Assembly (NCBI GenBank): GCA_034679345.1
Contig: JAXDAY010000010.1
Coordinates: 12,390 to 76,389 of the forward strand
Direction: 5' to 3'
Source: Candidatus Eiseniibacteriota bacterium
GTDB taxonomy: Bacteria > Eisenbacteria > RBG-16-71-46 > CAIMUX01 > VGJL01
Length of the DNA stretch: 64,000 nucleotides
The notes beneath the pieces were generated by a model. That model worked only from the letters and a program-made list of their open reading frames with translations, was not told the origin of the DNA and did no database searches. Positions within the stretch are counted from its first letter, which is position 1. Every line of letters begins with the position of its first letter. Shown here piece by piece: positions 3,736 to 41,443 of this stretch. Made by a program: the position numbers and the translations under genes.

Positions 3736-3736
3736 C

Positions 3737-17278: not shown

Positions 17279-17282
17279 CCGT

Positions 17283-18053: not shown

Positions 18054-18162
18054 GCAGGCTCTGGGCCCTCCTCGAACCGCGCCCCCGAGCGTAGGGCCGC
18101 CCGCAGGTGGGTTTCTCGTTGATCGAAGCAAAGTCGCAGGTTAACAGAGGTGGCGGAGGGGG

Positions 18163-22268: not shown

Positions 22269-22478
22269 TCAGGGCTCCTCCGCCCCGCCAGGCTTCTCCG
22301 GCGGACAATCCTGGAATGAGACGTCCACGATCTCCTCCTCGGAGGCTGCCTGGCGCCCTGAGGACGGATCGGACGCCCCAGGCGTCGGGCGACGCCGCTC
22401 AGGTCTGGGAGACTGCAACCGGCGGATGAGCAAGAGCGCCACGAGGCAGATCAGAGCGAAGAGCAGGAGGTTTGACAT
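22269..22478 (-). CDS. Possible small single-TM protein (69 aa) immediately upstream of ribD
   Basis: Inner ATG of ORF 22269..22535 preceded by GGTGAACAGC. MSNLLLFALICLVALLLIRRLQ then a charged tail. There is no homology call. It could equally be a non-coding leader. Confidence 0.25.
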   Translation of the reverse strand: MSNLLLFALICLVALLLIRRLQSPRPERRRPTPGASDPSSGRQAASEEEIVDVSFQDCPPEKPGGAEEP

Positions 22479-22535
22479 GCTGTTCACCGAGGGCGAGACG
22501 CGGTCGAGGTTCGATCCCCGCGCGCCCTCGGGCAC

Positions 22536-22564
22536 ACAATAGTTACGGCCCGCGTGGGTGTCAA
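22536..22564 (-). promoter_or_regulatory. Near-consensus sigma70-type promoter on minus strand (TTGACA-17 nt-TATTGT) driving the small ORF / rib operon leader
   Basis: Minus-strand reading: CTTGACAcccacgcgggccgtaacTATTGTg. The -35 is plus 22559-22564, the -10 is plus 22536-22541, and the spacer is 17 nt. Confidence 0.3.
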
Positions 22565-22595
22565 GGAAGCCAGGCCGACGCGTGAGCGAGCGAAA

Positions 22596-22626
22596 GACCC
22601 CACGGGGGAGGCTTCCCCGTGGGGTC
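22596..22626 (-). terminator. GC-rich hairpin (12-bp stem GACCCCACGGGG/CCCCGTGGGGTC) downstream of the OmpA-like gene
   Basis: Seen directly. On the minus strand it is followed by TTTCGCTCGC, a weak U-tract. It lies 70 nt after the stop at 22698. Confidence 0.45.
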
Positions 22627-22697
22627 TTGACGGGTTCACGGCTACCCGCCCTGCGGCGGGCCTCCGAGGTCGACCGATCTCGTTCCGGCGATCCTGA

Positions 22698-24326: not shown

Positions 24327-24381
24327 CTCACTACCTCCTTGTTGAACCCGTCGTCACACGATCATCAGAACAAGACTGAGG

Positions 24382-24409
24382 GCGGGGGGGAGGGTTCCCT
24401 CCCCCCCGC
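24382..24409 (-). terminator. Very stable hairpin (13-bp stem GCGGGGGGGAGGG/CCCTCCCCCCCGC) 10 nt after the giant gene stop, just upstream of the OmpA-like gene RBS
   Basis: Seen directly. The minus-strand downstream sequence is CCTCAGTCTTGTTCT, moderately U-rich. It is a likely terminator/attenuator separating the giant gene from the OmpA-like gene. Confidence 0.45.
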
Positions 24410-24418
24410 AGTAGACCG

Positions 24419-27400
24419 CTACTCCCTCCAGAGGACCACCTTCAGGTTCGCTTCCTCCGTCCGGGCGCCGTCGGAGGCGGTGACACGGACGATGTAGGCG
24501 CCGTTCGCGAGCTTCGTGCCGTCGCTGGCCGTGCCGCCCCAGTAGATCCCGCCCAACTTCGACGGAGTCATCTGTTCGTGGCTGGCGAGAGTCGTCACGT
24601 AGTTACCCGCGAAGTCGTAGACCTTGATGGTCACATCGCTCGTCTTGCTCAGGGCGAAGTGGATGAGAGCATCGCCGTCGGCAGGATCGAACGGGTTCGG
24701 GTAGGTGTAGACGTCGGTCAGGGTCAACATGGTCGCCTCGACCCGGACCGTCTTCGTCGAACTGCAGGTGTGGCCAAGGCGATCCCTGGCAGTCACAGTG
24801 ATCGTGTAATCGCCGACTGCAAGCGGAGCCGGGATCGTGGCGGTGTAGTGGCCGTTGTTCCACTCCTCGTTCTCCGGAACGATCTCCTCGCCGTCCGGCC
24901 CGCGGATGATGACCACGAGGTCCTCAGCCGACGAACCGACGCCCACGCCCGTGTCCGCCGCGGTGACTTCGATCACCATCGGGGTATTCGGATCATGGAC
25001 GGAGGCCGGGAGAATGATCGCGCACTCCGGAGCGAGCGCATCCACGATGAACCTCTGCTCAACGTACTTGCTGCCGCTGTTGCGCACCTGGTCGAGGACG
25101 CCCTGCTGGTAGATGATCCGCTGCTGGCTCAGGAAGTCGAACCAGCAACCGTCGAGCACGTACAGCGTCTCCCCGCCAACGACGAGGGTGTCGACCACGT
25201 CGCACTGGAGGGCCGGGCCCTCACCCAGGAGGGTGCGGGTCTTCTGGCTGTAAAGCGTGACCTCGAGGATGTCGCCATCCTGGATCCGTCCGCCGCCCAC
25301 GATGGGCAGCTTCACGAGCAGTTCCTCGCTCGGGTCGTAGATGTTCTCAGCGCCGTAGAGAGGCGGCTCGAGGTAGGGCAGCAGCTCATCCGCCGTGCCC
25401 TCGTGCAGCAACTCGCGCTCCTCGAACTCGTCGATGTCGAGTTGCTCGTCCTCTCCGTCGACGCGCCACAGGTCGTAATGGATACCCCAGTCGATCGGGT
25501 TGAAGCATTCGAACCCGCCGACCGGATCCGTGAAGGGCTCGAGGAAGAGCTCGACGTCGTCGATGATCTCGTCGCAGTCGGGATCCTGGATGAACTCCTG
25601 CCGCTCCGGCCTCACGAAGATACCGGAGAGCGGATCGTACATCCGGACCGTCAGCATGGCGTCGTCACCGGCGATGTAACCGTGGACGTTCCGGAGCAGC
25701 GGATTCGAGACCCAGCCACCATGGAACTCCACGATCGGGGCGGTCAGGTCGACCGTGAACGGCATTGTCACCGAAGTCAGATCGTCCGTCCCGTGCGTCC
25801 TGTATTCCACTGTGATCGTGTGATCGCCCTCAGCCAGCCAGTCGCGCTGGATGGGAGAGTGGAAGTAGTCGAGCTCGTAGATGGTCGAGTGGCCATCGTT
25901 GCCGTCGTCGTTCGCGCTCATGAGGTGCGCGCCGCCAGCGCCCCAGACCCAGGTCGCGATGACGTCCTCGGCGAAGTCGCTCACGTCGTAGAACGTGGCG
26001 ACGTCGCGGTCGTCCACCTTGACCTTGACTGTGCTGGCCTCGATGCCCTGTCCGCCGATGTCGTGCAGATAGAAGCTGAAGATCGGATCGGCATCCGTCA
26101 CCCAGTTGCTCAGGTAAGCGGAGTGCGGCGTCACGTTGGCGAGGAACACCGGCGCGCCGCTCTTCGGAGCGAAGACCTCGAAGACCGTACCGTCGCTGTT
26201 GATCGACGAGAGATTGTCCACATTGAAGGAGATCTCGTTCGCCTCGGTGTTGACCCGGATGTTCATGATGCCCTCGGCATCCGAGTAGTCGTAGTCCCAA
26301 CGCCGAACCGTCAGCATCTCCTCCGTGACGCCCTCGTTTTCAGCCAAGGCGGCATTCAGAGCTTCGTCGCTGTACTTGATCACGATCGTCGGAAGGTATC
26401 CTTCCCGGAAGTCGTCATAGTACTCGCTTTGGCTCTTCGTAACCTCGATGTGCCACGCAGTGTCCTTCAGAGGAGTCAGATAGACCCTCTCCTCGGGACT
26501 CAGCTGCGGCGCGATGGTCTCGCTGACGAGCAGGCAGGCGTCGTCCTCCATCCAGGCGCCGCTGACCACGGTCACCTGGCTATAGAGGTCTCCGTAGCCC
26601 TGCGTCACCACCGTGCCATTCGTGCCGAGTTCCGTCGTGACGGGGAACTCGTGAATCGCGGTGGTCACCTCATCGATGAACCACTCGGGATTCTGCATGC
26701 CGGTCACGAAGACCTTGAAGTGCAAGCATTCGTCGATTGGGTACTCATCGTCATAGGTTTCCGTGAGACTGATCCGTCCGCGCCAAACCGTCGGATCATC
26801 GAGGGAGCGGACCAGACCGAACTGGCCGTTCTCGGGATCGGACGGAACTCCGGCGGAGTAGATCCACCAGTAGTCGTTCGGCGCGACGACGTTGTCGCTC
26901 TCTCCGAGGACTACGACACGAGGCCGATCAGTCGAGTTCGGCATGTCGACGGTCAGGATCGCCTGCGGTTCGCTGTTTTCGTCCGCGCTTTCGATCTGAA
27001 CCGACACGTCCTCGACGATCGGCGGCGCCGTGCGAAGGGCCCGGAAGGTCCAGGCGCCGTCATAGGGCCACTCGGTCGGATCGTTGACATCGTCGAGACG
27101 GATGAGCTCCGCCCGCATCATCGGCACCACGTCCGCCGGGTCATCGCCGTAGCGGTTGCCGTCGGAATCCTTCGCGAGAGCGCGCAACCAGAAGAGGGCG
27201 CCTTCCTGGAAGTTGAAGGCCGTCGTCTCGATACGCGTCCGCCACAGGACTTCAGTGGTGTAGTCGTGCTGGCCGGTCACCTGCTCGCCGAATCCGATGT
27301 TCACCCACTCATGATCGAGATCGTTCTCGCCCTCGATCGTGTCGTACTGGAACAGAACATCCTCGATGCTCGGGTCGCTCTCGGCGAGCGCGTAAATGTA

Positions 27401-30400
27401 GAGGTAAGTCAACGGATTCTCGCCGTGCGGATCCTGATCGGGGTCGAACGCCACGACCCGAGCCGTCGGCGGGATGTTGTCGCGAATGATGACATTGACG
27501 TTTCCGCTGGTCGCCGCGTTGCCGCACTCGTCGATCGCGGTGACCCGCAGCAGGTACTCGCCGTCCACCACCAGGCCGGTCGTGTTCCAGAGAACCGAAC
27601 CGGTCACGGCGGAAGGATCATCGAGATCCGCCGGGTCGAAGACGATCGTCCCAAGGTCGCGCCAGATATCGCCATCCGGCTCATCGTCCTTGTTCAGATC
27701 CTCGGCGACCTGGAACTGCATCTGCGTGACGAACGTCTCGTGGCCGAGCGGAGCGTTCGGGATGTTGGCCTCGTCGTCCGAAGCCGTCGCCCAGATCTCC
27801 ACCTCGAGGCCGCGCGTGACTTCCGTCACCTGCCCGAAGTCGATCGGATCCTGAGTCGGATCGTCGACCGCGAGCTTGATGTTGGTGATGTTCACCGGAT
27901 CCGGAGCCGTCGTATCGAGCGTGTTCTTCCAGGAGTAGATCACGTTCGCGTTGCCGGCGACGTCCATGACCCTGACGCGCAGGTCGATCAGCTCGCCCAG
28001 CGCATCGAAGTCGGGATTCGGCTTGCAGCCATCCTCGTCGAACTCCATCGCGTCGAAGTCCATGGTCTTCGACAGGGTGTTCAGAGCGTCGTCGTAGAGG
28101 TAATCCTCCGAGACGCCGCAGGGACGCCACAGAGTCGAATCCTCGTACGACCACTTCCACTCGAACACTGCGTCGAACACGTCGTCGTGCTGGACATCGC
28201 CGTTCTCGTAGGTCTGGCCACGATCGGTGATCTGAGCGATCAGATCGAAGATCCGGTGGCCGTTGCGCTCGTCGATCTCCGCATCGCACCACTTCGAAGT
28301 CGCCTCCGTCGGGTGGAGCAGAGCAAACGGCGGGGCGGTCCAGTCGACGAAGACCAGGATCTTCGCCGCCGCATCGAACGGTTCGGTGTTGCCCGCGTCG
28401 TCGGCGCCGAGAGCCGCGACCTCGTACCAGGTCTGGTCATCGAGGGTCGTCAGATCCCACGGACCGGTGAGCCGCCAGGTGAACCGATCCACCTGCTCGG
28501 TGACCGCATCGATGAGGGTCGGCGTGTCCGCCGTCCCCAGCTTGCGGTAGACGAAGTTCACGTAGCTGAGATCGAGGTGACCCGTCAGCAGCTTCGCGTT
28601 GATGTGTTCGATCGACGAGGCGTGAAGCGCCGTCGGGTTCATGATCTGTTCGGTATCGCCGAAGGTGCGCTGCACCTCGGTGATCGTCATGTGAGGCGGG
28701 ATCGTGTCGATGATCTCGAAGGTGAGGCCGCGGCCTTCGGTCAGGTTCGTCACCTGATCGGTCGCGTTGCCGACCTCGTCCTCGACGAGCGTCGAGAAGT
28801 CGTACTGCTCACCGACCTGAAGCGGGAGCGGCCAATCGACGTCATCGGGGTTCTCGAGACCCACCGAACCAAGATCCAGGTTGAAGCTGTAAGGACGAGT
28901 GTGGTCCGGGTTGATGTCGCCGTCCGTGGCGCTCCAGTCCTCGTCGAACGAGTGGTAGGAGCCCGGGAAGTTGACATCACGCGTCCTCTTGAAGAAGAAC
29001 TCGACCGTGTCGTCCTCGTTCGCAGGATCCGTGGAGGCCAGGAACGTGACCACCTCGTTGCGCTGGATCCGATCGGCATCGGGATCCGCGGTCAACGTGG
29101 CGGTCGGAGCATCCATGTCGACCTTGATGATCGCCGTGGTCGTCTGCCCGACCTCTTCCACGTTACCGGCCTCGTCGGTCGCCTTTGCGGAGAGCTTGTA
29201 CCAGCCGCTCCACTTGAGGCTGCCATCGAGGTTCGTCTCCGTGAGATCCCAGTACAGGTGCCACAGGTAGTAGTAGTTCCCGCCGTTCGGGTACTCGTCC
29301 TTGCCGATGGTCACCGGATCGCCGATCGCCTGGCCCTGCTCGTCCACCGGGGTGGCGAAGAACTCGACGAACTCGATTCCGTCGTCACCGTCCGGTAGCG
29401 GCGGGCCTGGGATCTCCTGATCCCCGCCGTTGAAGTCGTCGCCGAAGCGCGTCCTGGCAACGATCGTGACCAACCGGGCGACCTTCATCTTGTTCATGAG
29501 GTCGTTGTTCCCGAGGAAGCCCTCGTTGACATCGCGCGGCCAGGTGTTCTTCCACATACCGATGACCTCGTCGGACTCGGTCTCGTCGGGGATGTTCGCC
29601 CCGCCGGCCGTGCTCAGGACGAAGTCGGAGTAGTAGTCGTAGTCATCCTCGGTGTCCGAGGGATCGCTGCCATCGCGGTCGACCCAGACGTAGGTGTTCG
29701 CATCCTCGCTGGCATCCTCGGTGTCGAAGGCGAAGACCTTCGCCTCGACGTCGATGATCTTGGTAGCGACCGGCGGGTTCTCGTCGCGCACGACGTAGTC
29801 CGCGGCCTTCCAGTCGAGAGCGTTGCCGGCCGGATCGATGGCCATCACCCACACCTCGATCGGTGTGTCGTGGAAGACCTCGGTCGGCCAGACCCACGAA
29901 GCGTCGAACAGCCACTGGCAGTTCGGCGTGTCCAGGGTGCCCTCGACCGTGTCGTCCGGTCCGAGGCCGCCCTCAGGCGTCGAGGCGATGACGTACTTCG
30001 TCTCGTCGCCGGCCAGCTTGAAGTAGAGCTGAACGTGCCGCACGTCGGTGATGGCGTCCTGGAGAACGACGTGGAAGTCGACGTTCTCACCCGGCGCGAT
30101 CTCCCCGTATGGCTGGTTGTCGCTGAAGTCCCACAGCGTCGGATCGCTGAAATCGACCGCGGCGGTGACGTAGGCCGGATCGGCCTGGTTCGCGTTCGTG
30201 TTACACGCCGCGTCGGTGGCGAGAACGCGCCACTCCAGCACCCCCTCCGGGATGCCCAAGCCGGCCGCGTTGTCGGCGAAGTCCTCGATGTGCGCGATCC
30301 ACTGCTTGTGTCCGGCGACCTCGGGCGGCCCCGGCGCGTAGTGGAACTCGATCGCGACGTCGTTCCAGTCCAGGGTCCCCGGGAGGCGCCACTGGAGCGT

Positions 30401-33400
30401 GAGGACGTCGATCATGTCATCCGCCGGCGTGTAGACGTAGAACTCGACATCGCCCGTATACGGATCCGGAGCGATGACCGGGGACTCGTGGTCCACGACG
30501 CCGTCGTTGAAGTACATCGCGAGATTCACGAACGGACGACCGCCCTCCGGACCGTAGACGACGGCCGGGGCTTCGCGATCGACCTGGATGTTGGAATGGA
30601 CCGAGGTCGTCCGGTTCCCGTCCGCATCCAGCGCCTCAGCCCACAGCTGGTAGAGGCCGTCCTGGTAGCGACCGTCGGGACCGTTGTCGGTGTCCCACTC
30701 CAAGACGAAGAACGCGGTGTTCGCGCCAGGCGTGTAGTCCCCGCGGCAATCCAGCGGGATGTCGCCGAAAGCGATGTCATCGGCGCGACCGAGGATGACC
30801 GCCTCGCCGCCGTCCGGCTGGAGCATGATGTCGACGCCCACCAGGTCCTCGAGCTCGAGGGCGCTGCCGGCCGTGACCATGCCGTAGAGGGTGACCACGC
30901 GGTTCGCGTAGCCCGTCTCGTCGGTCAGACGGTCGCAACCGCAGAGCTCGGTGTTCATCCACATCAGGAATGCGCCGGGCGCCGTCTGATCGTCGACGAT
31001 CACCACCACCTCATCGGCGTGCAGATCGTCCTCGATCGTCGTGTTGCCCGCGACATCCGTGGCAAGCATCCGGAAGCGGAGGTAGGTGTCCTCGCGCGTC
31101 CCGAGCCAGTTCGTGTCGAAGTCGACGTTGAAGGTGACTTGCCCCTCCTCGGTCGGCTCGATCCGGTTCAGGTCCGTGTTGTCGTTCGGAGTCGGATCGA
31201 TCTCGATCCAGTCCGCGTCTTCGAAGCGGTACTCGAAGACGACGTAGTCGATGGCGCTGGCCGGCGACTCAGGCGTCGCATGGTCGTCCGCCGTGCCGGT
31301 GACCTGGATCACATCTCCGAAGAGGAACGTGTCGCCGTCGTGCGGGTTGTTGATCATCGTCGTCGGCGCGTAGCCGTCGTAGATCAACGCCGGCTCGAGC
31401 ATCGCGTAGACCGGGTTACCGGAACCCGGGAAGAGGTCGTCCGTCGGATCGCCGCCGTAGCCGGCGTCGTCGAAGACGACCGCGCGGACGGGCAGGACCG
31501 AGACGATCTCGTCCGGGTCGGCCGGAAGATCGACCTCGCCGTCGCCGTCGTTGTCGTATCCGTCGCTCTCGGGCGGATCGAATCCAGCGCCGCCGAAGTG
31601 AAGAACGCCGGACCAGCCGTCCGCGGGGTCACGATCGATGGCGAAGGTGAGCCACTCGTCCGGGGTGCCGTCGTCGTTCTTGTTCGGGCTGTACTGGAAG
31701 ACCACCGTCCGGGTCGTGATGACGTTGATGTCGGGACCGTCCGTCGATTCGAGGTGGACGGTGATCTCCGACTCGGCGCCGGGCATGACGCCGCCATTGT
31801 CTGCCCAGAAGTTGGAGACGATGGGGGCATCCTTGTCATACATGAACATGATCGGTCCCTGCGGAGCATCGCTGCCATCCGACAGGTTCGTTCCGACCAT
31901 GCCCTTGTTGTCGGTGACCGTCACGAGGACCCGATAGGCGTCGGACTCGAGGACGGAGGTGTCGAACATGTAGTAGTAGAACTCGTCGGGCAGCGCGATC
32001 AGCGATGTCGTTCCCTGACCGCCGCTGCTGTTCCGCCGGTCCGCGTAGTTCCCGTCGTCGTCACCGATCTTGTCGATGAAGAACCGGTACTCGTAGACCG
32101 TTCCCGGCATGAATCCGTCGTAGATCACCTGGTAGTAGTCCGGGTGCCCGACATTGCTCATCGGCAACGACGTGTAGTCGACGGCGCCTTCCTCACGGAT
32201 CCAGAGGGCGACGTTCTCGATCTCGTCGCTCCGGACCTCGTAGTAGTCGGCGACGTACATCGTCAGAGCCATCGAGAGAGCCTTGTCGCCGGAGTAGAAG
32301 TCATTGACGACATCCAGCAGGACCGTCGAGAACGGATCGCTCTCGAAGGCCTGGTAGAAGTCGAGCTTGACCTCGGTGATCTCGGCCGTGGCGTCGGTCG
32401 TCGAGGCGGTCACGAAGACGTCGTTCTCGACGCCGCTTCCCTTGTGCTCGGGCGTGCCGGCGGGAGCGAGACCGAACGGGTTGCCCGGCCAACCGAGCTC
32501 CGGCGCTGCCGGAGGCTCCTGCTGCGGGTAACCCCACTCGTCGCCCTGCTCGTAATCGAGACCGTAGAGATGAACGATCGGGCGGGCGACCTCGCGAAGG
32601 ATCACATGATTCCCCTCGCTGATGATCGGCTCCACGAGATCGCACACGCTCGTATCCTCGTACCAGCCCGAGCCGTCGAGGTCCATCAGACCGACGGCGA
32701 CCAGGTCATAGGCGTTCGCGCCGCTCCAATCGAGCGTTCCCATGTCTCCGTCCGGGTTTTCCGGATCGGGGACGCCGCCCTCGGGACCTTCCGCCCACTC
32801 GACCGTGAAGGGCTCGACGTCATCGCCGGCCGCGATCAGCAACCAGCCGTCGCTGTAGGCGCCGGGGTACTGAATCGCGTCCGGAGGAACGCCGGTGCCC
32901 ATGAAGTTGTAGCTGACCGTGATTTCCGCATCCGCATCCGGGGCGACCGCGAAGGTGATGAACGTGTCGCCCGCCGAGGCGGTGTAGTCGACTCCGCTGA
33001 CGAGCTCCACGCCGCCGATGCAGACCACGACGCCCGCTCCCCTCTGATCGAGGATCGGCTTCTCGAGGGCCAGCATCAGGTTCGCGTCCACATCCGAGCC
33101 CGCGTAAGAGGTGTTCTGGATGCGCGGCGCGAAGTAGAACCGCACCTGAGCGACATTGTCGAAGTCGGGATCAACCTCGCCCACGATCGTCCTGCCGTCG
33201 CCGATGTTCAGGACCGTCTCGCTCGGCAGACAGAGGTCGTCGGGCTTCACGGGATCGATCACGTAGGCGAGATCCTCGCCCGCCCACTGGTTGAAACCGA
33301 ACCCGTACGGGTAGACGGGGATCCAGGAGTAGTTGCCGATGCCGTCGATCGCCTCGGCGAAGAACTGGTAGTTCCCGTCTGTGAGATCCAACCCCTGCTC

Positions 33401-36400
33401 GTGGACCGTCCACCGGAAGTTGTACGGGTAGTCCCGATCCGGATAGGAGTCCCAAGGGGTGTCGTCCGGGAAGGTGTCCATCTGAGCCGCGGAGAGCAGC
33501 TTCCAGCCCGGCCGATCCGTCGTGCAGGCGGGATTCGGGCGGTACCACAGCCGCACCCACTCGATCTCATCGGAGTCTTCCGCCGTCACGTGGACGAGGA
33601 AGGTGCGCGAGGTGGCCGGATTCTCATCGGGTCCGAGGACCTGATAAGGATCGCCGTCGGAGACGGGGTGGAACACGTCCACAACCTCGTCGTCCTCGGT
33701 CTCGACGCGCACCGGGCCCGTCATGATCGGCGGGGTCCAGTCGCGGAAGAGGATCGACTCGAAGTCGGTGCCGGTCAGATCCGACTCGGGGCACTCGCGC
33801 GAACTCTCGACCGTCGCTGTGAGATCGCAGAGCTGGCTGCCCGCGACCGCGTAACCGGCGAGGTCGTAGTACGCGAAGTACGGCTCGACGGAGTCTGCCT
33901 GGTTGACCGAGTCCTGGTCGTCGACCGTCTGGCCGTCGTTGTCCCAGTCGCCGACGACCCAGTCGATGCCGTCCCAGTAGACGTCCTCGCGAACGAGTGG
34001 AACGAGGAGCTGCCCTTCCGGAGTGTCGACGAACGGCGCGTTGCGCCCGGCGTCCAGCACCTCGTCGATGCCCGGATCGTAGAGCCAGTTCTCGTTGACG
34101 TCGCGGATCCGCTCGTCATCGAGATACGGCGCGTAGCTCCTCTGATTGAGGAACTCGCTGCGCGTATCGCGGACGGGGTCGTCCCGATACTGGAAGCCGG
34201 GCAGACCGTTCAGATCGGCGTAGGAGTCGCCGTCCGGGTTCGGCCCGATGACCTCATTGGGCTCGCCCGTGAACGTGGCCGTGAAGACGATGTTCTCGAT
34301 CTCTTCGCCCGCCGGGACGGCCCGCACGCGGAAGAACCGCGCGTTCTTCGGCATCTCATCGATATCCGGCGGCGTGGTGTCCAGGTCGAGCGTGACGATG
34401 TCGTAGCTCCAAGTGTCGTTGGAGGGATCGCCGTCGCCCTGGTCGTCATAGAGCGGCACGAAGGCCTCGACGACCGTCAGGTCGACATCGACCTCGGAGC
34501 AGTTGACGGTGACGATCTGAAGCTCGAGCGGGTTCCAGTTGTCCGGGTCGTACTGATGCTCCTGGATCTGGTCTTCCTCGCCGGAGCGGGTGATGGCGAT
34601 CGTGCGGACGATGTAGTCGCCATCGCTCTGCGTCTCGTCGCCGCACGGATCCCAGTCGATCTTCCACAGATTCAGCCCGATGAGGGCCGGATCGAGGTCG
34701 TCGCCGTAATCCGTGTAGTTCTCGCGGTTCTCGCGGAAGATATAGTCGGACGGGTCAAGATTCTCCCAGTCGTTGGGAGTCCCGTCGCAATCGTCCGCCT
34801 GCTCGGCCCAGTAGTAGGCCGGGTTGGCGTTCGAATCGTCGTCGTAGGTCGTGAACCGGGTGAGCGGAACGCCGTCGGGGATGTTCTCGCTGTAGGTGTC
34901 CGACCCGATGACGACGATGTCGATTCCCTCGTCATAGACGTCGTTCTCGTTCACGTCCTCGATGACCGCGTCCCTCGAGGAGTAGACCGGGAAGCCGACG
35001 ATGTAGTCGTTGTCGGCGTTGTAGTAGGAGTACCAGCGGTCGTCCGGCCCATACGAGAAGAACCGGCTGGCGCCGCCATAGGCCGCCTCGAGGAAAGCGA
35101 GGTCGTCGCGGCAGCCGTTGTCGGAGTTGAACCGGTAGATGAGCTGGTCGCCGCGCTCGCCGATCGCGTCAGGATCGGATCCGCCGACGGTGCCGATCGT
35201 CTCCCAGACCTCTCCGGCATCGAGATCGTTGCCGTTGACGACGATCTCCTTCAACCGCTCGAACCGGACCCGGTCCGGGTCGAGGCCGTTGCAGCCATGG
35301 ATGTAGTGGAGGCCGTAGAGCTTCAGCTGCCCCTCGAGAGCGGGAGGAGAGGAGCAGTAGACCGGCTCGATATAGACGCGGCAGGGGAAGAAGTCCTGTC
35401 CGGGGTAGAGCCACTCCCACGCGGTCTCCTCCGGGTTGATCGTCTCGATGCGGCCGACGTTCCCTTGCCAGTCCGCGGCCGCCAGCAGGAACGCCAGCTC
35501 GCTCGGCGAGGTGATCTCGTCACCTTCCACCGTCTGCCAGATCGTCCCGTTGGGCGGGGGCGGAACATTCCCGTACGGGGGAAGCCCGTCTCCCACATAG
35601 ATGCTCAGCCCGATCCGATGCGGAGAGTTCACTCCGTCGATCTGACGGGGCCTCATGTTCCCGAGCGCGATGGCCCTGTCCAGATAGGTGGCCATCTTCG
35701 TCTTGTCCCAGCTACCCTCGTTTCCGCGAAGCACGGGGTAGAGGAAGTACTGGTCGCCGTCGTCGATCCCCGACTCGTAGAACCGGAGATAGGCGGTGTA
35801 GGTCTGGTTGGGCTCATCGAAGGTCCAACCATCCTCGCCGGAGACCCAGTCGTTGGTCAGCGTGACCAGGCGAGGGCGGCTCTCCTCCATCACCGGGGTC
35901 CAGAATAGGTTGGCGTCATAGTAGGAGTTGCCGTCGACGTCCTGCAGGTCCGTGCCCCCCTCCACCGGCTCGGCGAACCGGATCCGGCAGCCCTGCTCGT
36001 ACGGATCGGCGCTCTCGCTGAAGTCCCGGATGATGATGACCGGGAAGTTGTCGCCGTCCGGCGGCTGATAGTCCACCACCTCGTTACCGCCGAAGGCGAA
36101 TCCCTGGAGATCGAAGTTCTGGGTGATGTCCAGGGTCCCGTCGTCGATCTGGGCCGCCTGAGCGGGAAGGATCGGCAGCGACAGGTAGATGTAGAGCGCA
36201 TCGTTGGAGAGATCATCGTTGTCGGGGTCGCTGGGATCCTTGTTCTCGTCGTACGAGGACCGCACGATGCCGCCGCCGACATGGATGCTGATCGTATCGT
36301 CGGGGACCGCCAGTTGACCTTGGTAATCCTCGAAGAACTGCGCGGATCCTGGAATCGTCACCCCGACGTCGTCGATGTTGACGTCGTTGATGCTGAAGTT

Positions 36401-37468
36401 CCGCACACGGACGATGTTCGACCAGAACGTCGAGTACCAGTTCTCGGTCACGCCGCCGAGGATCGCTCCCGCCGGATTCGACGTGAACCAGTTGTCGAAC
36501 GGACCGCCTGCGTTCTTCGTGGTGACCATCTGGTCGAACACGCCGACCAGCACGTCGAGGTTCGCGTGGTAGTACATGGCGTGGAACAGCGGCCCGCCGC
36601 CATCGTTGGTCGTCTCGACGTAGGTTTCCACGTTCTGGAGCTTCGGGCTCCTCGGATCGTCCTCCCAGACCAAGTAGCCGTCGTCGAGGTGCAGATTCAT
36701 GACGCCCGGCTGCATGTAGAGGAAGTCGTTCCCCGAGCTGCGGCTCAGATCGAGGACGTTCGTATTGATGCCAGCGCCCGTGAGGGTGGCTTCGTTGAAC
36801 TCGATGGTCCCGCCGAAGGCGCCGTTCCAGTTGACGCCGGTCGCCCACACCACGTCGGCGTCGAAGGTGACGAGGACATGGTTGTCGTTGGGGCCGTCGT
36901 CGACCGAGAGATCGTTCGCGATGCCGGTGATCTCGACCCGCGTGATCACGGGGCCGTCGCCGACGATGAGAGTCGAGACGTCGATGCTGTCATAGCCGGT
37001 GAGGTCTCTGACCTCTCCCGCCTTGAGCGCGATCTCCTCGATCGCACCGTCCTCGAACTGGGCGTCGACGAGCCCGTTGGGGAAGGTGAGATAGAGAACG
37101 TTGTCCCCGTCGTTGCTGCCGTAACCCATCTCGGTGAGGTCCATGGTCTCCGAGACGAAGTCGTCGTCGGGAGTCCCGGTGTCCTCTCCGATCATCGCCG
37201 GATCGATGGCCTCGTTGAAGACCAGCACGACCCGCGGCCCGGTTGGGTTAAACGTCGTGGCAACTAGATACGGCGCACCGCTCACCGGGGTCTCTTGCGG
37301 TGGCAAGAGGCTTGTCCCAAAGCTGGTGGGATACGCCGGGTAGTTGATGACCGTGTTCTCCGCCGGCGCAAGGTCACGGGTGTCGGCGTATGCCCCGTAG
37401 ACCGCACCGAGCAAGGTGAGCGCTAGGATAACCATGAAGACAGTGCTCCTGGTCCTGAATCCGCTCAT
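24419..37468 (-). CDS. Giant (~4349 aa) acidic secreted cell-surface protein: signal peptide, >15 Ig-like/cadherin-like modules, C-terminal T9SS-type / FlgD-Ig-like sorting domain
   Basis: ORF-track frame 24419..37744, uninterrupted. True start MSGFRTRSTVFMVILALTLLGAVYGAYA at 37468, preceded by AAGGAGGAAGAGGGTG. Recurrent module-start motifs DxxAPxx / DxxPPxx every ~200-300 aa (DKDAPIVSNF, DQTAPGAFLMW, DREAPAVVYGP, DMDAPTATLTADP, DTIPPHMTITEV, DWTAPPFALLHP, DTTAPDPVNITNI, DNIPPTARVVAF, DLTAPIVEFHGG). Extreme D/E excess with few K/R. The C-terminal block is YTYPNPFDPADGDALIHFALSKTSDVTIKVYDFAGNYVTTL...GIYWGGTASDGTKLANGAYIVRVTASDG. Confidence 0.85.
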   Translation of the reverse strand: MSGFRTRSTVFMVILALTLLGAVYGAYADTRDLAPAENTVINYPAYPTSFGTSLLPPQETPVSGAPYLVATTFNPTGPRVVLVFNEAIDPAMIGEDTGTPDDDFVSETMDLTEMGYGSNDGDNVLYLTFPNGLVDAQFEDGAIEEIALKAGEVRDLTGYDSIDVSTLIVGDGPVITRVEITGIANDLSVDDGPNDNHVLVTFDADVVWATGVNWNGAFGGTIEFNEATLTGAGINTNVLDLSRSSGNDFLYMQPGVMNLHLDDGYLVWEDDPRSPKLQNVETYVETTNDGGGPLFHAMYYHANLDVLVGVFDQMVTTKNAGGPFDNWFTSNPAGAILGGVTENWYSTFWSNIVRVRNFSINDVNIDDVGVTIPGSAQFFEDYQGQLAVPDDTISIHVGGGIVRSSYDENKDPSDPDNDDLSNDALYIYLSLPILPAQAAQIDDGTLDITQNFDLQGFAFGGNEVVDYQPPDGDNFPVIIIRDFSESADPYEQGCRIRFAEPVEGGTDLQDVDGNSYYDANLFWTPVMEESRPRLVTLTNDWVSGEDGWTFDEPNQTYTAYLRFYESGIDDGDQYFLYPVLRGNEGSWDKTKMATYLDRAIALGNMRPRQIDGVNSPHRIGLSIYVGDGLPPYGNVPPPPNGTIWQTVEGDEITSPSELAFLLAAADWQGNVGRIETINPEETAWEWLYPGQDFFPCRVYIEPVYCSSPPALEGQLKLYGLHYIHGCNGLDPDRVRFERLKEIVVNGNDLDAGEVWETIGTVGGSDPDAIGERGDQLIYRFNSDNGCRDDLAFLEAAYGGASRFFSYGPDDRWYSYYNADNDYIVGFPVYSSRDAVIEDVNENDVYDEGIDIVVIGSDTYSENIPDGVPLTRFTTYDDDSNANPAYYWAEQADDCDGTPNDWENLDPSDYIFRENRENYTDYGDDLDPALIGLNLWKIDWDPCGDETQSDGDYIVRTIAITRSGEEDQIQEHQYDPDNWNPLELQIVTVNCSEVDVDLTVVEAFVPLYDDQGDGDPSNDTWSYDIVTLDLDTTPPDIDEMPKNARFFRVRAVPAGEEIENIVFTATFTGEPNEVIGPNPDGDSYADLNGLPGFQYRDDPVRDTRSEFLNQRSYAPYLDDERIRDVNENWLYDPGIDEVLDAGRNAPFVDTPEGQLLVPLVREDVYWDGIDWVVGDWDNDGQTVDDQDSVNQADSVEPYFAYYDLAGYAVAGSQLCDLTATVESSRECPESDLTGTDFESILFRDWTPPIMTGPVRVETEDDEVVDVFHPVSDGDPYQVLGPDENPATSRTFLVHVTAEDSDEIEWVRLWYRPNPACTTDRPGWKLLSAAQMDTFPDDTPWDSYPDRDYPYNFRWTVHEQGLDLTDGNYQFFAEAIDGIGNYSWIPVYPYGFGFNQWAGEDLAYVIDPVKPDDLCLPSETVLNIGDGRTIVGEVDPDFDNVAQVRFYFAPRIQNTSYAGSDVDANLMLALEKPILDQRGAGVVVCIGGVELVSGVDYTASAGDTFITFAVAPDADAEITVSYNFMGTGVPPDAIQYPGAYSDGWLLIAAGDDVEPFTVEWAEGPEGGVPDPENPDGDMGTLDWSGANAYDLVAVGLMDLDGSGWYEDTSVCDLVEPIISEGNHVILREVARPIVHLYGLDYEQGDEWGYPQQEPPAAPELGWPGNPFGLAPAGTPEHKGSGVENDVFVTASTTDATAEITEVKLDFYQAFESDPFSTVLLDVVNDFYSGDKALSMALTMYVADYYEVRSDEIENVALWIREEGAVDYTSLPMSNVGHPDYYQVIYDGFMPGTVYEYRFFIDKIGDDDGNYADRRNSSGGQGTTSLIALPDEFYYYMFDTSVLESDAYRVLVTVTDNKGMVGTNLSDGSDAPQGPIMFMYDKDAPIVSNFWADNGGVMPGAESEITVHLESTDGPDINVITTRTVVFQYSPNKNDDGTPDEWLTFAIDRDPADGWSGVLHFGGAGFDPPESDGYDNDGDGEVDLPADPDEIVSVLPVRAVVFDDAGYGGDPTDDLFPGSGNPVYAMLEPALIYDGYAPTTMINNPHDGDTFLFGDVIQVTGTADDHATPESPASAIDYVVFEYRFEDADWIEIDPTPNDNTDLNRIEPTEEGQVTFNVDFDTNWLGTREDTYLRFRMLATDVAGNTTIEDDLHADEVVVIVDDQTAPGAFLMWMNTELCGCDRLTDETGYANRVVTLYGMVTAGSALELEDLVGVDIMLQPDGGEAVILGRADDIAFGDIPLDCRGDYTPGANTAFFVLEWDTDNGPDGRYQDGLYQLWAEALDADGNRTTSVHSNIQVDREAPAVVYGPEGGRPFVNLAMYFNDGVVDHESPVIAPDPYTGDVEFYVYTPADDMIDVLTLQWRLPGTLDWNDVAIEFHYAPGPPEVAGHKQWIAHIEDFADNAAGLGIPEGVLEWRVLATDAACNTNANQADPAYVTAAVDFSDPTLWDFSDNQPYGEIAPGENVDFHVVLQDAITDVRHVQLYFKLAGDETKYVIASTPEGGLGPDDTVEGTLDTPNCQWLFDASWVWPTEVFHDTPIEVWVMAIDPAGNALDWKAADYVVRDENPPVATKIIDVEAKVFAFDTEDASEDANTYVWVDRDGSDPSDTEDDYDYYSDFVLSTAGGANIPDETESDEVIGMWKNTWPRDVNEGFLGNNDLMNKMKVARLVTIVARTRFGDDFNGGDQEIPGPPLPDGDDGIEFVEFFATPVDEQGQAIGDPVTIGKDEYPNGGNYYYLWHLYWDLTETNLDGSLKWSGWYKLSAKATDEAGNVEEVGQTTTAIIKVDMDAPTATLTADPDADRIQRNEVVTFLASTDPANEDDTVEFFFKRTRDVNFPGSYHSFDEDWSATDGDINPDHTRPYSFNLDLGSVGLENPDDVDWPLPLQVGEQYDFSTLVEDEVGNATDQVTNLTEGRGLTFEIIDTIPPHMTITEVQRTFGDTEQIMNPTALHASSIEHINAKLLTGHLDLSYVNFVYRKLGTADTPTLIDAVTEQVDRFTWRLTGPWDLTTLDDQTWYEVAALGADDAGNTEPFDAAAKILVFVDWTAPPFALLHPTEATSKWCDAEIDERNGHRIFDLIAQITDRGQTYENGDVQHDDVFDAVFEWKWSYEDSTLWRPCGVSEDYLYDDALNTLSKTMDFDAMEFDEDGCKPNPDFDALGELIDLRVRVMDVAGNANVIYSWKNTLDTTAPDPVNITNIKLAVDDPTQDPIDFGQVTEVTRGLEVEIWATASDDEANIPNAPLGHETFVTQMQFQVAEDLNKDDEPDGDIWRDLGTIVFDPADLDDPSAVTGSVLWNTTGLVVDGEYLLRVTAIDECGNAATSGNVNVIIRDNIPPTARVVAFDPDQDPHGENPLTYLYIYALAESDPSIEDVLFQYDTIEGENDLDHEWVNIGFGEQVTGQHDYTTEVLWRTRIETTAFNFQEGALFWLRALAKDSDGNRYGDDPADVVPMMRAELIRLDDVNDPTEWPYDGAWTFRALRTAPPIVEDVSVQIESADENSEPQAILTVDMPNSTDRPRVVVLGESDNVVAPNDYWWIYSAGVPSDPENGQFGLVRSLDDPTVWRGRISLTETYDDEYPIDECLHFKVFVTGMQNPEWFIDEVTTAIHEFPVTTELGTNGTVVTQGYGDLYSQVTVVSGAWMEDDACLLVSETIAPQLSPEERVYLTPLKDTAWHIEVTKSQSEYYDDFREGYLPTIVIKYSDEALNAALAENEGVTEEMLTVRRWDYDYSDAEGIMNIRVNTEANEISFNVDNLSSINSDGTVFEVFAPKSGAPVFLANVTPHSAYLSNWVTDADPIFSFYLHDIGGQGIEASTVKVKVDDRDVATFYDVSDFAEDVIATWVWGAGGAHLMSANDDGNDGHSTIYELDYFHSPIQRDWLAEGDHTITVEYRTHGTDDLTSVTMPFTVDLTAPIVEFHGGWVSNPLLRNVHGYIAGDDAMLTVRMYDPLSGIFVRPERQEFIQDPDCDEIIDDVELFLEPFTDPVGGFECFNPIDWGIHYDLWRVDGEDEQLDIDEFEERELLHEGTADELLPYLEPPLYGAENIYDPSEELLVKLPIVGGGRIQDGDILEVTLYSQKTRTLLGEGPALQCDVVDTLVVGGETLYVLDGCWFDFLSQQRIIYQQGVLDQVRNSGSKYVEQRFIVDALAPECAIILPASVHDPNTPMVIEVTAADTGVGVGSSAEDLVVIIRGPDGEEIVPENEEWNNGHYTATIPAPLAVGDYTITVTARDRLGHTCSSTKTVRVEATMLTLTDVYTYPNPFDPADGDALIHFALSKTSDVTIKVYDFAGNYVTTLASHEQMTPSKLGGIYWGGTASDGTKLANGAYIVRVTASDGARTEEANLKVVLWRE

Positions 37469-38040
37469 CACCCTCTTCCTCCTTTGGTTGACCATGCCGC
37501 CCTGGAACCGATGCTGGGCGGACTTGTCCCTGTTCCCTCTGCGTGGCGCAACCCCCAAATGGCACAACGGGAGCTCGCGCTTCCCTTCGTTTGTGACTCC
37601 CCCATTTCGGGGCTGCCCATGAAGCGTCCTGCACACGTGATGCACGCGTCCTCGCATCTTCTCTAAAGCACCAAAGAGGGGCGATGGACATAGCGTCCCC
37701 GCTCCGCCTTGCCTACGGATGAGTCGACTTCGTTTCTTCAGCAAACTCCCCCATGATCATCCATCCCTTGCCGGACGTCGACGGACGTCATGCGCCATTG
37801 CGTATGGCGACCAACCCCCTGCAAGAGTGGACCTTACAGTGTCGCGCACAGAACCGGCTGGCAGACTGTCACAGCAGTCAAGCGGTGTCAACACGAAATT
37901 CTAGAACCCCCGAGCATCATTTGAGGAAGATCCCCCTGGGGGTTATCGGCCGTCGAGGAGCGATCCATCAGCGCGATTCCCGGACCCGTCGGAGTCACAT
38001 TATTCAAGTGAACCGACGCAAATACAGACCACAGGGCTGG

Positions 38041-40983: not shown

Positions 40984-41317
40984 TAGACTACCCTCCCTAG
41001 GATCCGCAGAGGTCGCACGCTGTCTCTCGCCAGCCGGACTCGTTCCTGTCTTGATCAGCCTCAGAGTTCGGGATCGATCGGATCGAGGCAGCCGAGGACT
41101 CATTGAGATGGAGACTCGACGCGAGAGCCATGCACGACGGCTTCCATGACCTGGTGCCCCCGGGATACGGGCAACCCGCTGGTGCCCGCTCTCGGGTACC
41201 ATTGAGCCGCCCGCGCGGTCTCGACGGGCACGCACCCCGGGGAGTGTCGCGCGCCTGGATTGGATGCGTCAACCCGAATCCAATCTGCGCTGAGGCTCTG
41301 AGGCTTGTGCGAAGAGC

Positions 41318-41390
41318 TTGAGCCGCCCGGGACTCGAACCCGGCACGTCCTGCTTAAAAGGCAGGTGCTCTACCGGCTGAGCTAGCGGCT
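41318..41390 (-). tRNA. tRNA-Lys (anticodon UUU)
   Basis: Minus-strand sequence GAGCCGCTAGCTCAGCCGGTAGAGCACCTGCCTTTTAAGCAGGACGTGCCGGGTTCGAGTCCCGGGCGGCTCA folds as a cloverleaf. Acceptor GAGCCGC/GCGGCTC, anticodon loop CTTTTAA. CCA is not encoded. Confidence 0.85.
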
Positions 41391-41443
41391 CTCGGCGAGC
41401 CTAACCTGCCGCGGCGCTTCGCGCAACGCCCGAGACCCGCGCA

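Follow-up and report, generated by a model that had tools for sequence, protein, structure and literature searches.

A gene of 13 kb in the DNA analysed here (64 kb in all, hereafter the window) encodes a secreted, strongly acidic protein of 4349 amino acids, and directly downstream of it lies a gene for a putative outer membrane barrel joined to a peptidoglycan-binding domain. The explanation that we favour, with a probability of about 0.55, is that the giant and the barrel form a cell-surface fibre, exported by a T9SS-like route and anchored through the cognate barrel. The giant is a member of a small family so far found only in Eisenbacteria, an uncultured phylum, and its gene is real, intact and under selection. 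It holds about 15 divergent, non-interchangeable Ig-like sandwich modules and ends in an Ig-like tail that is, on sequence grounds, homologous to the C-terminal domain of PorU. Each functional role given to the giant below is one that we infer. To our knowledge, Eisenbacteria have no cultured member and nothing has been published on their cell surface.

Table 1. Features of the giant gene and its surroundings, in window coordinates
Feature	Position	Strand	Remarks
TTGACA (-35-like)	37886..37891	-	About 420 nt upstream of the giant start codon; conserved
Shine-Dalgarno AAGGAGG	37478..37484	-	9 nt 5' of the ATG; read from sequence
Giant coding sequence	24419..37468	-	4349 codons + stop; 481 kDa; pI 4.05
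Sec signal peptide	37385..37468	-	aa 1-28; predicted cleavage AYA/DT; read from sequence
N-terminal head	34829..37384	-	aa 29 to ~880; family-specific
Weak Ig-like module signature	34379..34831	-	~aa 880-1030; hhalign 83-94% to module profile
Ig-like module	33314..33745	-	aa 1242-1385; iterated module HMM E 7.6e-26
Weak Ig-like module	31841..32371	-	~aa 1700-1876; hhalign probability 81-89%
Eleven consecutive Ig-like modules	27074..31840	-	aa 1877-3465; 120-175 aa each
C-proximal conserved block	25046..27073	-	aa 3466-4141
Last Ig-like module	24719..25045	-	aa 4142-4250; Pfam Big_13, also in module family
Putative C-terminal sorting/anchoring domain	24422..24703	-	aa 4256-4349
G+C-rich hairpin	24380..24409	-	13-bp stem, no U tract; between giant stop and anchor gene
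Partner (anchor) gene	22698..24326	-	542 aa; signal peptide, PorV/PorQ-family barrel, TSP3, OmpA

The giant gene and its family

The minus strand is free of stops in one frame from 24419 to 37744, and the ATG at 37468 gives 4349 amino acids and a stop. An uninterrupted frame of 13,050 nt had been described in an earlier note on this DNA, together with the AAGGAGG sequence ahead of the ATG and a canonical signal peptide, and all three are confirmed. A canonical Sec signal, MSGFRTRSTVFMVILALTLLGAVYGAYA/DTRD, stands at the N-terminus and is kept in all relatives, orthologues included. Upstream of the start, AAAGGAGG is kept in four loci of the alignment (the window, L004, L003 and L001), and L007 has AAGGAGG. 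A TTG start at 37744 was rejected because all orthologues start at the MSG... methionine behind the Shine-Dalgarno sequence.

Could a frame of this length be an artefact, either a chance reading frame in G+C-rich DNA or a mis-assembled repeat, or else a pseudogene? High-GC genomes produce long spurious ORFs, and antisense ORFs of 1606 and 2012 codons do exist opposite the giant. These plus-strand ORFs, however, are mirror-image shadows of the giant frame, in which GC by codon position is 0.63/0.40/0.87, as in the adjoining genes. The frame is also about ten times longer than any stop-free run in 50 shuffles (415 codons at most). Tandem and long direct repeats were looked for in the DNA of the gene and none was found, which makes assembly collapse unlikely. 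Collapse and repeat expansion were both rejected on this ground and because the modules are 19-26% identical; the earlier view that exact tandem repeats are lacking and that this is not a repeat-expansion adhesin therefore holds. Independent assemblies carry intact orthologues. The artefact and pseudogene readings are already refuted. The orthologue in locus L004 (4311 aa, 44-47% identity) is collinear with the giant from end to end, so the gene must be regarded as real and under selection.

Four more giants, which cover the lengths recorded for the family members found (4331-5906 aa), are collinear, with identities of 26-39% and net charges between -487 and -763. A word-indexed search with aa 1-1000 gave three orthologue fragments, and one with aa 1001-2500 gave two. 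All named family members come from Candidatus Eisenbacteria. The order of modules is fixed among the relatives and there is no repeat expansion.

Modules, orphan blocks and acidity

A motif of the form [hydrophobic]-D-x(1-3)-[A/P/D]-P occurs 24 times in the giant, with 8.5 +/- 2.9 expected. The D-x-x-A/P-P openings proposed earlier thus stand as an enriched motif, with the wording corrected; the proposed module length of 200-300 aa does not stand, as the actual length is 120-175 aa. Thirteen modules were found by iterated HMM and two weaker ones by HMM-HMM comparison. With the tail they make about 16 sandwich domains, so that the earlier count of more than 15 Ig-like modules is only just reached, and only with the weaker two and the tail included. 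For these weaker modules the orthologue g4 is informative: the iterated module HMM scores its aa 838-950, which match the giant's ~aa 880-1030, and also its 1648-1810, orthologous to the giant's ~aa 1700-1876, at E 7e-22. The array of 11 modules has the signature VDxxAP ... VxFxY ... W ... YxLxAxDxAGN and a pairwise identity of 19-26%. An Ig/Fn3-type beta-sandwich fold was confirmed for the Ig-like modules.

Among curated families, Big_13 passes at aa 4184-4242 (32.5 bits, gathering threshold 27). Central modules of relatives pass Big_3_3 (32-35 vs 27) and Big_7 (28.2 vs 24.1); the giant's own central modules have sub-threshold curated-family matches only. A search with a profile built from all 13 modules gave no match. 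Some 1,500 residues (aa 29-880 together with 3466-4141) are without any module signature, and the evidence for Ig-like character covers roughly two thirds of the giant.

What are these two remaining blocks? The head matches nothing in Pfam, NCBIfam or the PDB. In an exhaustive profile search just 26 representatives of it turned up among 1.84 billion proteins, and several of these are giants that carry the head block at the N-terminus. AlphaFold gave a pLDDT of 28 for aa 29-1200 with a four-row alignment. The C-proximal block contains the best-conserved stretches outside the tail, with a windowed identity of 55-61% to the L004 orthologue over aa 3601-4050; it has no module signature by hhalign and no known homologue. 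Neither the family profile of the head (A9) nor that of the C-proximal block (A10) has a solved relative even at E<=10, and A10 gave nothing meaningful against the PDB. The head is presumably the cell-distal end of the giant and likely its binding or functional end.

The extreme D/E richness seen in the earlier note is evident: D+E make up 18.7% of residues (D 11.9%) and K+R 5.0%, with a pI of 4.05 and a net charge of -596. Cytoplasmic neighbours have pI values of 5-11, so the acidity is not a proteome-wide effect, and a halophile-type acidic proteome was rejected. Calcium binding, for which composition was the sole basis, is not supported: there are two canonical DxDxDG motifs in 4349 aa, Ca_tandemer is missed with 14.7 vs 50, and no TSP_3 match was found in the giant. 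A cadherin-like protein has no support either and was rejected, since Pfam and NCBIfam scans give no Cadherin match at E<=1. Canonical calcium repeats (TSP3) sit in the partner protein, not in the giant. The acidic surface of the giant may bind cations diffusely.

The tail and the partner barrel

The tail reads PNPF ... VTIKVYDFAGN ... W.G ... ANGAYIVRV ... NLKVVLWRE. It had been taken for a Por-secretion-tail/FlgD domain, and the FlgD half of this assignment is upheld, since FlgD_ig reaches 32.6 bits (gathering threshold 27). The dedicated T9SS models both fail, Por_Secre_tail (PF18962) with 16.9 vs 27 and TIGR04183 with 22.3 vs 23. HMM searches of the kind the earlier note had suggested thus recover FlgD_ig and Big_13, that is, both the terminal domain and Ig-like folds, and leave Por_Secre_tail, TIGR04183 and Cadherin unreached. 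Compared with solved structures, the tail profile A7 matches the PorU C-terminal domain (6za2) over its full length at E 2.5e-7, FlgD at ~1e-5 and PorZ at 0.055. PNPF, the G-x-Y of NGAYIVRV and the K of NLKVVLWRE are invariant in alignment A7, so that the type A motifs are present; the final-strand lysine is found in 7/7 tails, and the WRE ending is common to the six family tails. Such a last-strand lysine has been described for T9SS C-terminal domains, which PorU, PorZ and PorA keep after secretion (PMC11285876).

A domain of this type stands at the extreme C-terminus of all family members and of two other secreted window proteins, as is expected of a general sorting signal. A beta-propeller protein of the window has this tail and a weak PorZ match, and its gene is located within a glycosyltransferase cluster. 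The 64-kb window holds no T9SS core component (SprA/Sov, PorK/L/M/N, PorU, PorT); of the T9SS machinery, a PorV/PorQ-family gene alone was found there. Phyla listed as possible T9SS carriers omit Eisenbacteria (PMC11285876), and we found no literature on Eisenbacteria that deals with T9SS, secretion, giant proteins or gliding.

The partner is a composite of a barrel (aa 40-316), TSP3 repeats (aa ~320-430) and an OmpA peptidoglycan-binding domain (aa 437-540). It reaches 114 bits against NF033709 (cutoff 90; profile positions 3-326 of 326), and OmpA (77 bits) and TSP_3 (31 bits) both pass. The putative-PorV2 model NF052325 (72.5 vs 325) and Pfam PorV (17.6 vs 27) are not reached, and the PorV/PorQ equivalog models are absent among the matches listed for the partner (25 families). 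As these narrower models are not reached, the partner is best viewed as a PorV/PorQ family member and not as a PorV orthologue.

The partner gene adjoins the giant in four other loci and comes directly after it in L004 (72% identity), L005 (75%) and L007. Eisenbacteria assemblies with the pair include GCA_018831195.1 and the JBHGAY01 MAG. Its identity of 72-75% is higher than that of the giants, which is 44-47% for the L004 orthologue and 68% for the C-terminal part in L005. In L006 an unrelated 2705-aa protein with a similar tail is followed, 5 nt on, by a PorV-family/TPR fusion; this unrelated pair indicates that the pairing of tailed cargo and barrel recurs. The hairpin between the giant and anchor genes (MFE -47.8 kcal/mol, z -2.6) was not called by a terminator scan, and it counts against assuming that the two genes are co-transcribed.

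Proposed role and alternatives

How might a protein of this size be exported and held? Sec would export the giant to the periplasm, where a T9SS-like route would recognise the C-terminal domain and carry the protein across the outer membrane. The giant would then stay on its cognate barrel through the C-terminal domain, probably uncleaved, and the periplasmic TSP3-OmpA arm of the barrel would tie the assembly to the cell wall. Gene adjacency and analogy are the sole basis on which we infer that the tail binds the partner barrel. The Ig-like array would form an extended stalk of strong negative charge, which divalent cations may stiffen and which would hold the N-terminal head (~850 aa) far from the cell. 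Of the surface fibre originally proposed, a giant, secreted and specifically acidic protein remains; calcium binding is suggested by composition alone, cadherin-like character is unsupported, and the curated T9SS tail models are narrowly missed.

The tail invites two other interpretations. The giant might be a classical type A T9SS cargo that, after PorV-type shuttling, loses its tail to a PorU-like sortase and is joined covalently to an anionic lipopolysaccharide, with the barrel-OmpA neighbour a shuttle or an unrelated envelope protein and not an anchor. In Bacteroidota, PorU links type A cargo to A-LPS (PMC8754138, PMC9143113), and the PNP motif, the G-x-Y, the last-strand lysine and a score just under TIGR04183 would suit such a cargo, as would the beta-propeller with the same tail in the glycosyltransferase cluster. 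The best solved relatives of the tail, however, are the non-cleaved domains of PorU and PorZ (PMC11285876), no PorU homologue is seen in the 64-kb window, and the close and conserved association with a barrel gene of its own, met again in L006, has the pattern of a cognate anchor and not of a general shuttle; we consider sortase cleavage unlikely. Or is there no link with T9SS at all? The FlgD-type domain would then be merely a terminal Ig-like domain of a protein that is periplasmic or uses another export route, and the adjoining barrel gene a lineage-specific accident. This would account for generic FlgD_ig passing alone while both T9SS-specific models fail, in a phylum where the system is undocumented. 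It is nonetheless quite improbable, in that the PorU match is full length and stronger than the FlgD match, the domain keeps to the extreme C-terminus in the family and in the two other window proteins, the neighbour scores above the PorV/PorQ cutoff, cargo and barrel are paired again in an unrelated lineage, and T1SS, T5SS and RTX features were not found.

Other readings concern what the giant does at the surface. It could be a constitutive structural coat or envelope scaffold, S-layer-like and tied to peptidoglycan through its partner, and not an adhesin. The single phylum-wide locus within a housekeeping block, the fixed module order without repeat expansion, the conserved promoter-like elements and the OmpA domain of the partner are all consistent with a coat, and for a gene that behaves like a core gene a structural role in the envelope is no less fitting than adhesion. 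One of the Foldseek matches is to an Ig-like domain from the HPI S-layer of Deinococcus, but this match is generic (TM 0.57, E 3e-3); S-layer-type domains and a self-assembly signature were not found, and lattice proteins are not typically single chains of 481 kDa. We regard a coat as a tentative possibility, one that is not exclusive of the favoured fibre, since both share the model of secretion and anchoring. An SprB-like gliding adhesin, moved by a T9SS/gliding motor, is suggested by the layout of a giant that ends in a sorting domain and is followed immediately by its cognate barrel gene, as in sprB-sprF (PMC9143113). But the type B tail (TIGR04131) and SprB repeats have no match in the giant at E<=1 in NCBIfam and Pfam, so that a type B or SprB-like protein was rejected; the partner belongs to the PorV/PorQ and not the PorP/SprF family, its OmpA domain would fix the barrel to peptidoglycan, which is hard to square with a moving adhesin, and no gld genes are seen in the 64-kb window. 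Gliding is accordingly very improbable.

The fibre reading can be carried further. The pair might represent a phylum-wide core envelope apparatus and a new anchoring of T9SS-type cargo, in which a type A-like, uncleaved domain is held by a PorV/PorQ-type barrel bolted to peptidoglycan, and the two orphan blocks, the head of ~850 aa and the C-proximal block of ~680 aa, might be new, lineage-defining folds; this is a speculative extension to which we give limited credence. If true, T9SS-style sorting would reach into a candidate phylum without a prior report. For the T9SS field, the points of interest are a natural fusion of a shuttle barrel with a peptidoglycan anchor, a type A-like tail paired with a dedicated barrel, and a possible case of T9SS beyond the documented phyla. 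As the giant is kept intact phylum-wide with a wall-tethered partner, it is probably central to how Eisenbacteria meet their environment.

Comparison with known systems

PorU is held by PorV, and PorZ by PorQ. The attachment complex of the Porphyromonas gingivalis T9SS, which contains PorU and PorZ together with these barrels (PMC11285876, PMC8754138), resembles the present pair in that the giant's tail is nearest to PorU (E 2.5e-7) and weakly similar to PorZ. PorU, however, is a peptidase of 1156 aa and PorZ a double propeller, so that the tail alone is common to them and the giant. Trapped SprA translocon complexes contain PorV with bound substrate (PMC10994853).

Genes for a cargo and for its cognate shuttle are often linked (PMC12618676). 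SprB of Flavobacterium johnsoniae, a type B cargo, binds the product of the adjacent PorP-like gene sprF, and in P. gingivalis PG1035 complexes with PorP and the peptidoglycan-binding PorE (PMC9143113). Like SprB, the giant is a surface protein of very large size that is exported by Sec and ends in a sorting domain, and its gene is followed immediately by one for an outer membrane barrel that would retain it. The differences are that the giant's tail is type A/FlgD-like and not type B, that the barrel is of the PorV/PorQ and not the PorP/SprF family, and that the giant is without SprB repeats, comes from an organism outside Bacteroidota and is known here from sequence alone. The PG1035 complex shares with the pair a peptidoglycan-binding OmpA-type element, PorE (PMC9143113, PMC12618676), but in Eisenbacteria barrel and OmpA are fused through TSP3 repeats in one polypeptide and are not two proteins. 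The TSP3 and OmpA parts of the partner match an OmpA-family protein with TSP3 (PDB 5wtl, E 3e-45), a solved fragment without a PorV-type barrel and without a known link to giant cargo.

Among bacteria, giant surface proteins with Ig-like domains are common. SiiE (595 kDa, 53 BIg domains) and the Marinomonas ice-binding adhesin, giant adhesins of the RTX/T1SS kind (PMC5466336, PMC5550230, PMC7493085), are similar to the giant in their half-megadalton size, long Ig-like array and strong acidity, as well as in the idea of a cation-stiffened stalk that presents a distal binding region. These adhesins have no Sec signal; they carry C-terminal RTX repeats, a T1SS signal and near-identical tandem repeats, are anchored at the N-terminus and have adjacent ABC/MFP genes. 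The giant, in contrast, has a Sec signal, no RTX match, no adjoining T1SS genes, no tandem repeats, modules of 19-26% identity in fixed order and a proposed C-terminal anchoring, and an RTX/T1SS adhesin was rejected on these grounds.

Upstream elements and gene neighbourhood

The locus is single and phylum-wide, and lies within a housekeeping block that runs from tig-clpPX-purA to the rib operon. The neighbours of the giant in the window are purA/tRNA-Lys, a CARDB-domain gene, the PorV-OmpA gene and rib genes, and the order purA, tRNA-Lys, giant, anchor gene is kept down to relatives that are ~33% identical. The upstream CARDB-domain gene was rejected as part of the unit, being absent there in L004, L001, L003 and L007. 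Rfam matches are limited to two tRNAs. TTGACA and a downstream CTGTG..CA are invariant in the window, L004, L003, L001 and L007. A consensus promoter scan upstream of the giant gave no full promoter at TTGACA, owing to the weak -10 of the window sequence; the position of TTGACA implies a leader of ~380-400 nt for the giant.

The giant gene and its product

The giant gene is real, and is now defined better than reading of the sequence alone allowed. In the ORF list of the window a single stop-free frame on the minus strand extends from 24419 to 37744, and an ATG at 37468 yields the 24419-37468 gene and 4349-aa product of the earlier note. The strong AAGGAGG noted there lies 9 nt 5' of this ATG, and the N-terminus, MSGFRTRSTVFMVILALTLLGAVYGAYA/DTRD, is the canonical Sec signal that had been described. 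Could the gene begin further upstream? The 92 codons 5' of the ATG were excluded, as all relatives start at the same MSG... methionine with its ribosome binding site. The longest run without a stop in 50 shuffles was 415 codons. GC by codon position (0.63/0.40/0.87) resembles that of purA, clpX and other neighbours; plus-strand ORFs of 1606 and 2012 codons mirror this pattern and were rejected as shadows of the gene. Tandem Repeats Finder and a repeat finder gave trivial short matches only, in keeping with the reported absence of obvious exact tandem repeats, and assembly collapse, for which a check had been suggested, is therefore no concern.

The product (481 kDa) is as rich in D and E as was claimed: D 11.9%, D+E 18.7%, K+R 5.0%, pI 4.05 and net charge -596, with the acidity evenly distributed over the chain. 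Cytoplasmic neighbours have pI values of 5-11 and the window's four secreted proteins 4.05-5.3; thus the acidity is specific to the giant, milder in exported proteins and not proteome-wide. Calcium binding, also suggested earlier, finds no motif support in the giant, which has just two DxDxDG motifs.

Ig-like modules and orphan blocks

Pfam gives two above-threshold matches over the 4349 residues: Big_13 (aa 4184-4242, 32.5 bits, threshold 27) and FlgD_ig. How much of the remainder is Ig-like? The proposed module-opening motif, D-x-x-A/P-P, is genuine: there are 24 instances of [hydrophobic]-D-x(1-3)-[A/P/D]-P, vs 8.5 +/- 2.9 in shuffles, and the motif marks boundaries every 120-145 aa across aa 1877-3465. 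A second signature, A-x-D-x-A-G-N, is found 16 times (1.6 expected). Internal similarity by self-BLAST is weak (30-37% across 40-120 aa). Starting from motif-bounded segments, an HMM iterated over the window protein and its orthologue converges on 13 modules, and weaker ones are seen by HMM-HMM comparison. Identity between modules is 19-26%, and they have in common the pattern VDxxAP ... VxFxY ... W ... YxLxAxDxAGN; homologous modules in relatives exceed Pfam thresholds for Big_3_3 and Big_7. The HMM, the signatures and the relatives' matches support the Ig-like reading, with modules half the ~200-300 aa first given.

About 1,500 residues without the module signature constitute the head and the C-proximal block. 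Neither has a match in Pfam, NCBIfam or PDB, family profiles included; an AlphaFold model of the head, from a four-row alignment only, has pLDDT 28.

Features of the giant protein and of surrounding loci
Feature	Location	Strand	Basis or comparison
Head	giant aa 29-880		no module signature
Weaker module	near giant aa 880-1030		HMM-HMM comparison
Ig-like module	giant aa 1242-1385		iterated HMM
Weaker module	near giant aa 1700-1876		HMM-HMM comparison
Eleven consecutive Ig-like modules	giant aa 1877-3465		iterated HMM
C-proximal block	giant aa 3466-4141		no module signature
Ig-like module	giant aa 4142-4250		iterated HMM
Leader region	window 37469-37900	minus	compared with L004, L003, L001, L007
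Leader counterparts	L004 6757-7369; L003 2545-3162; L001 9384-10000; L007 9492-10000		
Partner gene	window 22698-24326	minus	
CARDB gene	window 38107-41235	minus	
tRNA-Lys	window 41319-41391		
Propeller ORF	window 5739-8303	minus	
TMEM260-like, GT4 and methyltransferase genes	window 13629-18131	minus	

The C-terminal tail

The T9SS-type/FlgD-Ig-like tail claimed earlier stands on FlgD_ig (aa 4263-4334, 32.6 bits, Pfam threshold 27) and on a match to PorU, while the curated type A models are narrowly missed: Por_Secre_tail scores 16.9 against 27 (Pfam) and TIGR04183 22.3 against 23 (NCBIfam). In NCBIfam the C-terminus aligns with the ends of T9SS-dependent proteins, PorU and PorZ among them, and a whole-giant search for solved sequence relatives gave a single match, to PorU's C-terminal part (6za2). 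A profile built from seven tails aligns with the PorU C-terminal domain over its full length (E 2.5e-7), and matches FlgD less well (~1e-5) and the PorZ tail weakly (0.055). PNPF, G-x-Y and a last-strand lysine are invariant in this profile; T9SS C-terminal domains are described as having a conserved lysine in strand beta7, and those of PorU, PorZ and PorA are retained after secretion (PMC11285876). The same tail type ends two other window proteins, a 1042-aa CARDB/cohesin-like protein and a beta-propeller with a weak PorZ match.

The partner gene

A 542-aa partner gene starts 92 nt past the giant's stop codon, and between the two lies a 13-bp G+C hairpin that lacks a U tract. It encodes a signal peptide, a PorV/PorQ-family barrel (aa 40-316, full-length to NF033709, 114 bits, cutoff 90), thrombospondin type 3 (TSP3) calcium-binding repeats and an OmpA peptidoglycan-binding domain; the TSP3-OmpA part matches PDB 5wtl (E 3e-45). 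The gene also lies 3' of the giant in L004 (72% identity), L007 and metagenome contig L005 (75% across full length), and is better conserved than the complete giant. Does such a pairing occur elsewhere? On metagenome contig Ga0209636_10000664 (L006, 2174-12275) an unrelated 2705-aa protein with a similar tail and no Pfam domain is followed after 5 nt by the gene for a PorV/PorQ-family barrel (123 bits vs 90) that has TPR repeats fused to it; a giant tailed protein and its own PorV-type barrel are thus paired a second time. Beyond this barrel are a HATPase/HAMP/SpoIIE/TPR protein and a STAS protein. In the window, the region after the partner gene and 5' of ribD-ribBA-ribH (22309-22697) has no FMN riboswitch at Rfam gathering thresholds.

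Relatives and conserved neighbourhood

Word-indexed searches of 5.8 billion proteins returned only three giant-related fragments, one from a Candidatus Eisenbacteria MAG, and a genome-collection scan gave two loci. One, L004 (Candidatus Eisenbacteria SBS.BIN.67), has an intact 4311-aa orthologue of net charge -540 that aligns end to end at 44-47% identity. Exhaustive search of 1.84 billion proteins with a head profile found only 26 representatives, among them giants of 4331, 5344, 5426 and 5906 aa. These are 26-39% identical to the window protein, collinear over the whole length, and all hyper-acidic with a terminal K(V/L/I)V(I/L)WRE. Three have a ~1,200-aa insertion after the head; in P0005 (5906 aa, JGI), P0008 and P0009 (L007 10001-26035) it has many DxDxDG-like acidic motifs.

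Nearly all organism-named members are from Candidatus Eisenbacteria, a phylum that NCBI taxonomy places under candidate phyla; the P0007 sequence is deposited under Candidatus Latescibacterota as well, and entries from JGI are without an organism name. Members are annotated as 'hypothetical protein', as 'Ig-like domain-containing protein' or, owing to a vWA insertion, as 'Mg-chelatase subunit ChlD'; two vWA-like inserts judged by eye in P0005 would account for its having that name. In ENA assemblies ERZ25039554 and ERZ25039502 (L001, L002) frameshifts split the giant, clpP, clpX and purA into many short called genes, a pattern typical of uncorrected long-read assemblies; the family is consequently seen mostly as fragments in protein databases.

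Is this a mobile or expanding adhesin? The giant is preceded by ECH, tig, clpP, clpX, (lon), purA and tRNA-Lys, and followed by the partner gene and, further on, the rib operon, nusB, a methyltransferase, GT4 and a TMEM260-like glycosyltransferase, a neighbourhood kept even in a ~33%-identical relative. Conserved synteny and collinearity argue against a mobile or expanding adhesin, and the family behaves like a core gene that is inherited vertically and keeps its module order.

Export and anchoring

The sequence analysis establishes for the giant a Sec signal, an Ig-like array and a tail resembling the PorU C-terminal domain, and beside it a conserved PorV/PorQ-family barrel with an OmpA domain. 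The giant may cross the outer membrane via a T9SS-like route, its tail then holding it on the cognate barrel; the TSP3-OmpA arm would tether that barrel to peptidoglycan, and a long stalk of negative charge would display the head at its distal end. No T9SS core genes lie within the 64-kb window.

Of the systems known to work, type B cargo in Bacteroidota comes closest: SprB binds the protein encoded by the adjoining gene sprF, and PG1035 binds PorP, which binds peptidoglycan-binding PorE (PMC9143113). Linkage of cargo genes to cognate shuttle genes is frequent (PMC12618676). The giant's tail is type A-like and its barrel PorV/PorQ-like, and the partner unites in one polypeptide the barrel and wall anchor that PorP and PorE provide separately. 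That the giant behaves as a core gene speaks for a structural role no less than for adhesion. By its predicted domains the giant remains an Ig-like surface protein of recognisable kind; what is unusual is that it is confined to one phylum, in core-gene synteny, that its partner fuses PorV-family, TSP3 and OmpA parts, and that it has two large orphan blocks.

Other genes and the leader

The propeller ORF (at most 854 aa) has two-component-regulator propeller repeats, a FlgD_ig-type tail and a weak match (55 bits, cutoff 260) to PorZ, the T9SS A-LPS delivery protein. The genes clustered around it encode glycosyltransferases (GT4, GT2), an epimerase and a sugar transferase; the position of its start, which overlaps the adjoining ORF, is uncertain. 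After the rib operon is a TMEM260-like protein O-mannosyltransferase with TPR repeats, together with GT4 and a methyltransferase, and the same set follows the rib operon in the distant relative L007 (33699-36035). Animal TMEM260 O-mannosylates Ig-like IPT domains, and it is conceivable that this gene has a part in glycosylating the giant.

The giant's non-coding leader of ~400 nt has no match in Rfam. A TTGACA box and CTGTG..CA 3' of it are invariant in all five loci compared, and a second promoter-like site upstream, TTGACA-N17-TAGGTT/TTAGCG, is present in L004, L003 and L001. Within the leader, L003 and L001 have a G+C-rich stretch followed by TTCTGTTTTTT, the L004 counterpart being TTTCTGTTTTTT. 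In the other four loci the leader comes directly after the tRNA; only in the window does the gene for the secreted 1042-aa protein (CARDB domains, cohesin/dockerin-like stretches, FlgD_ig tail) lie between tRNA-Lys and the giant, and it looks like an insertion beside a tRNA gene.
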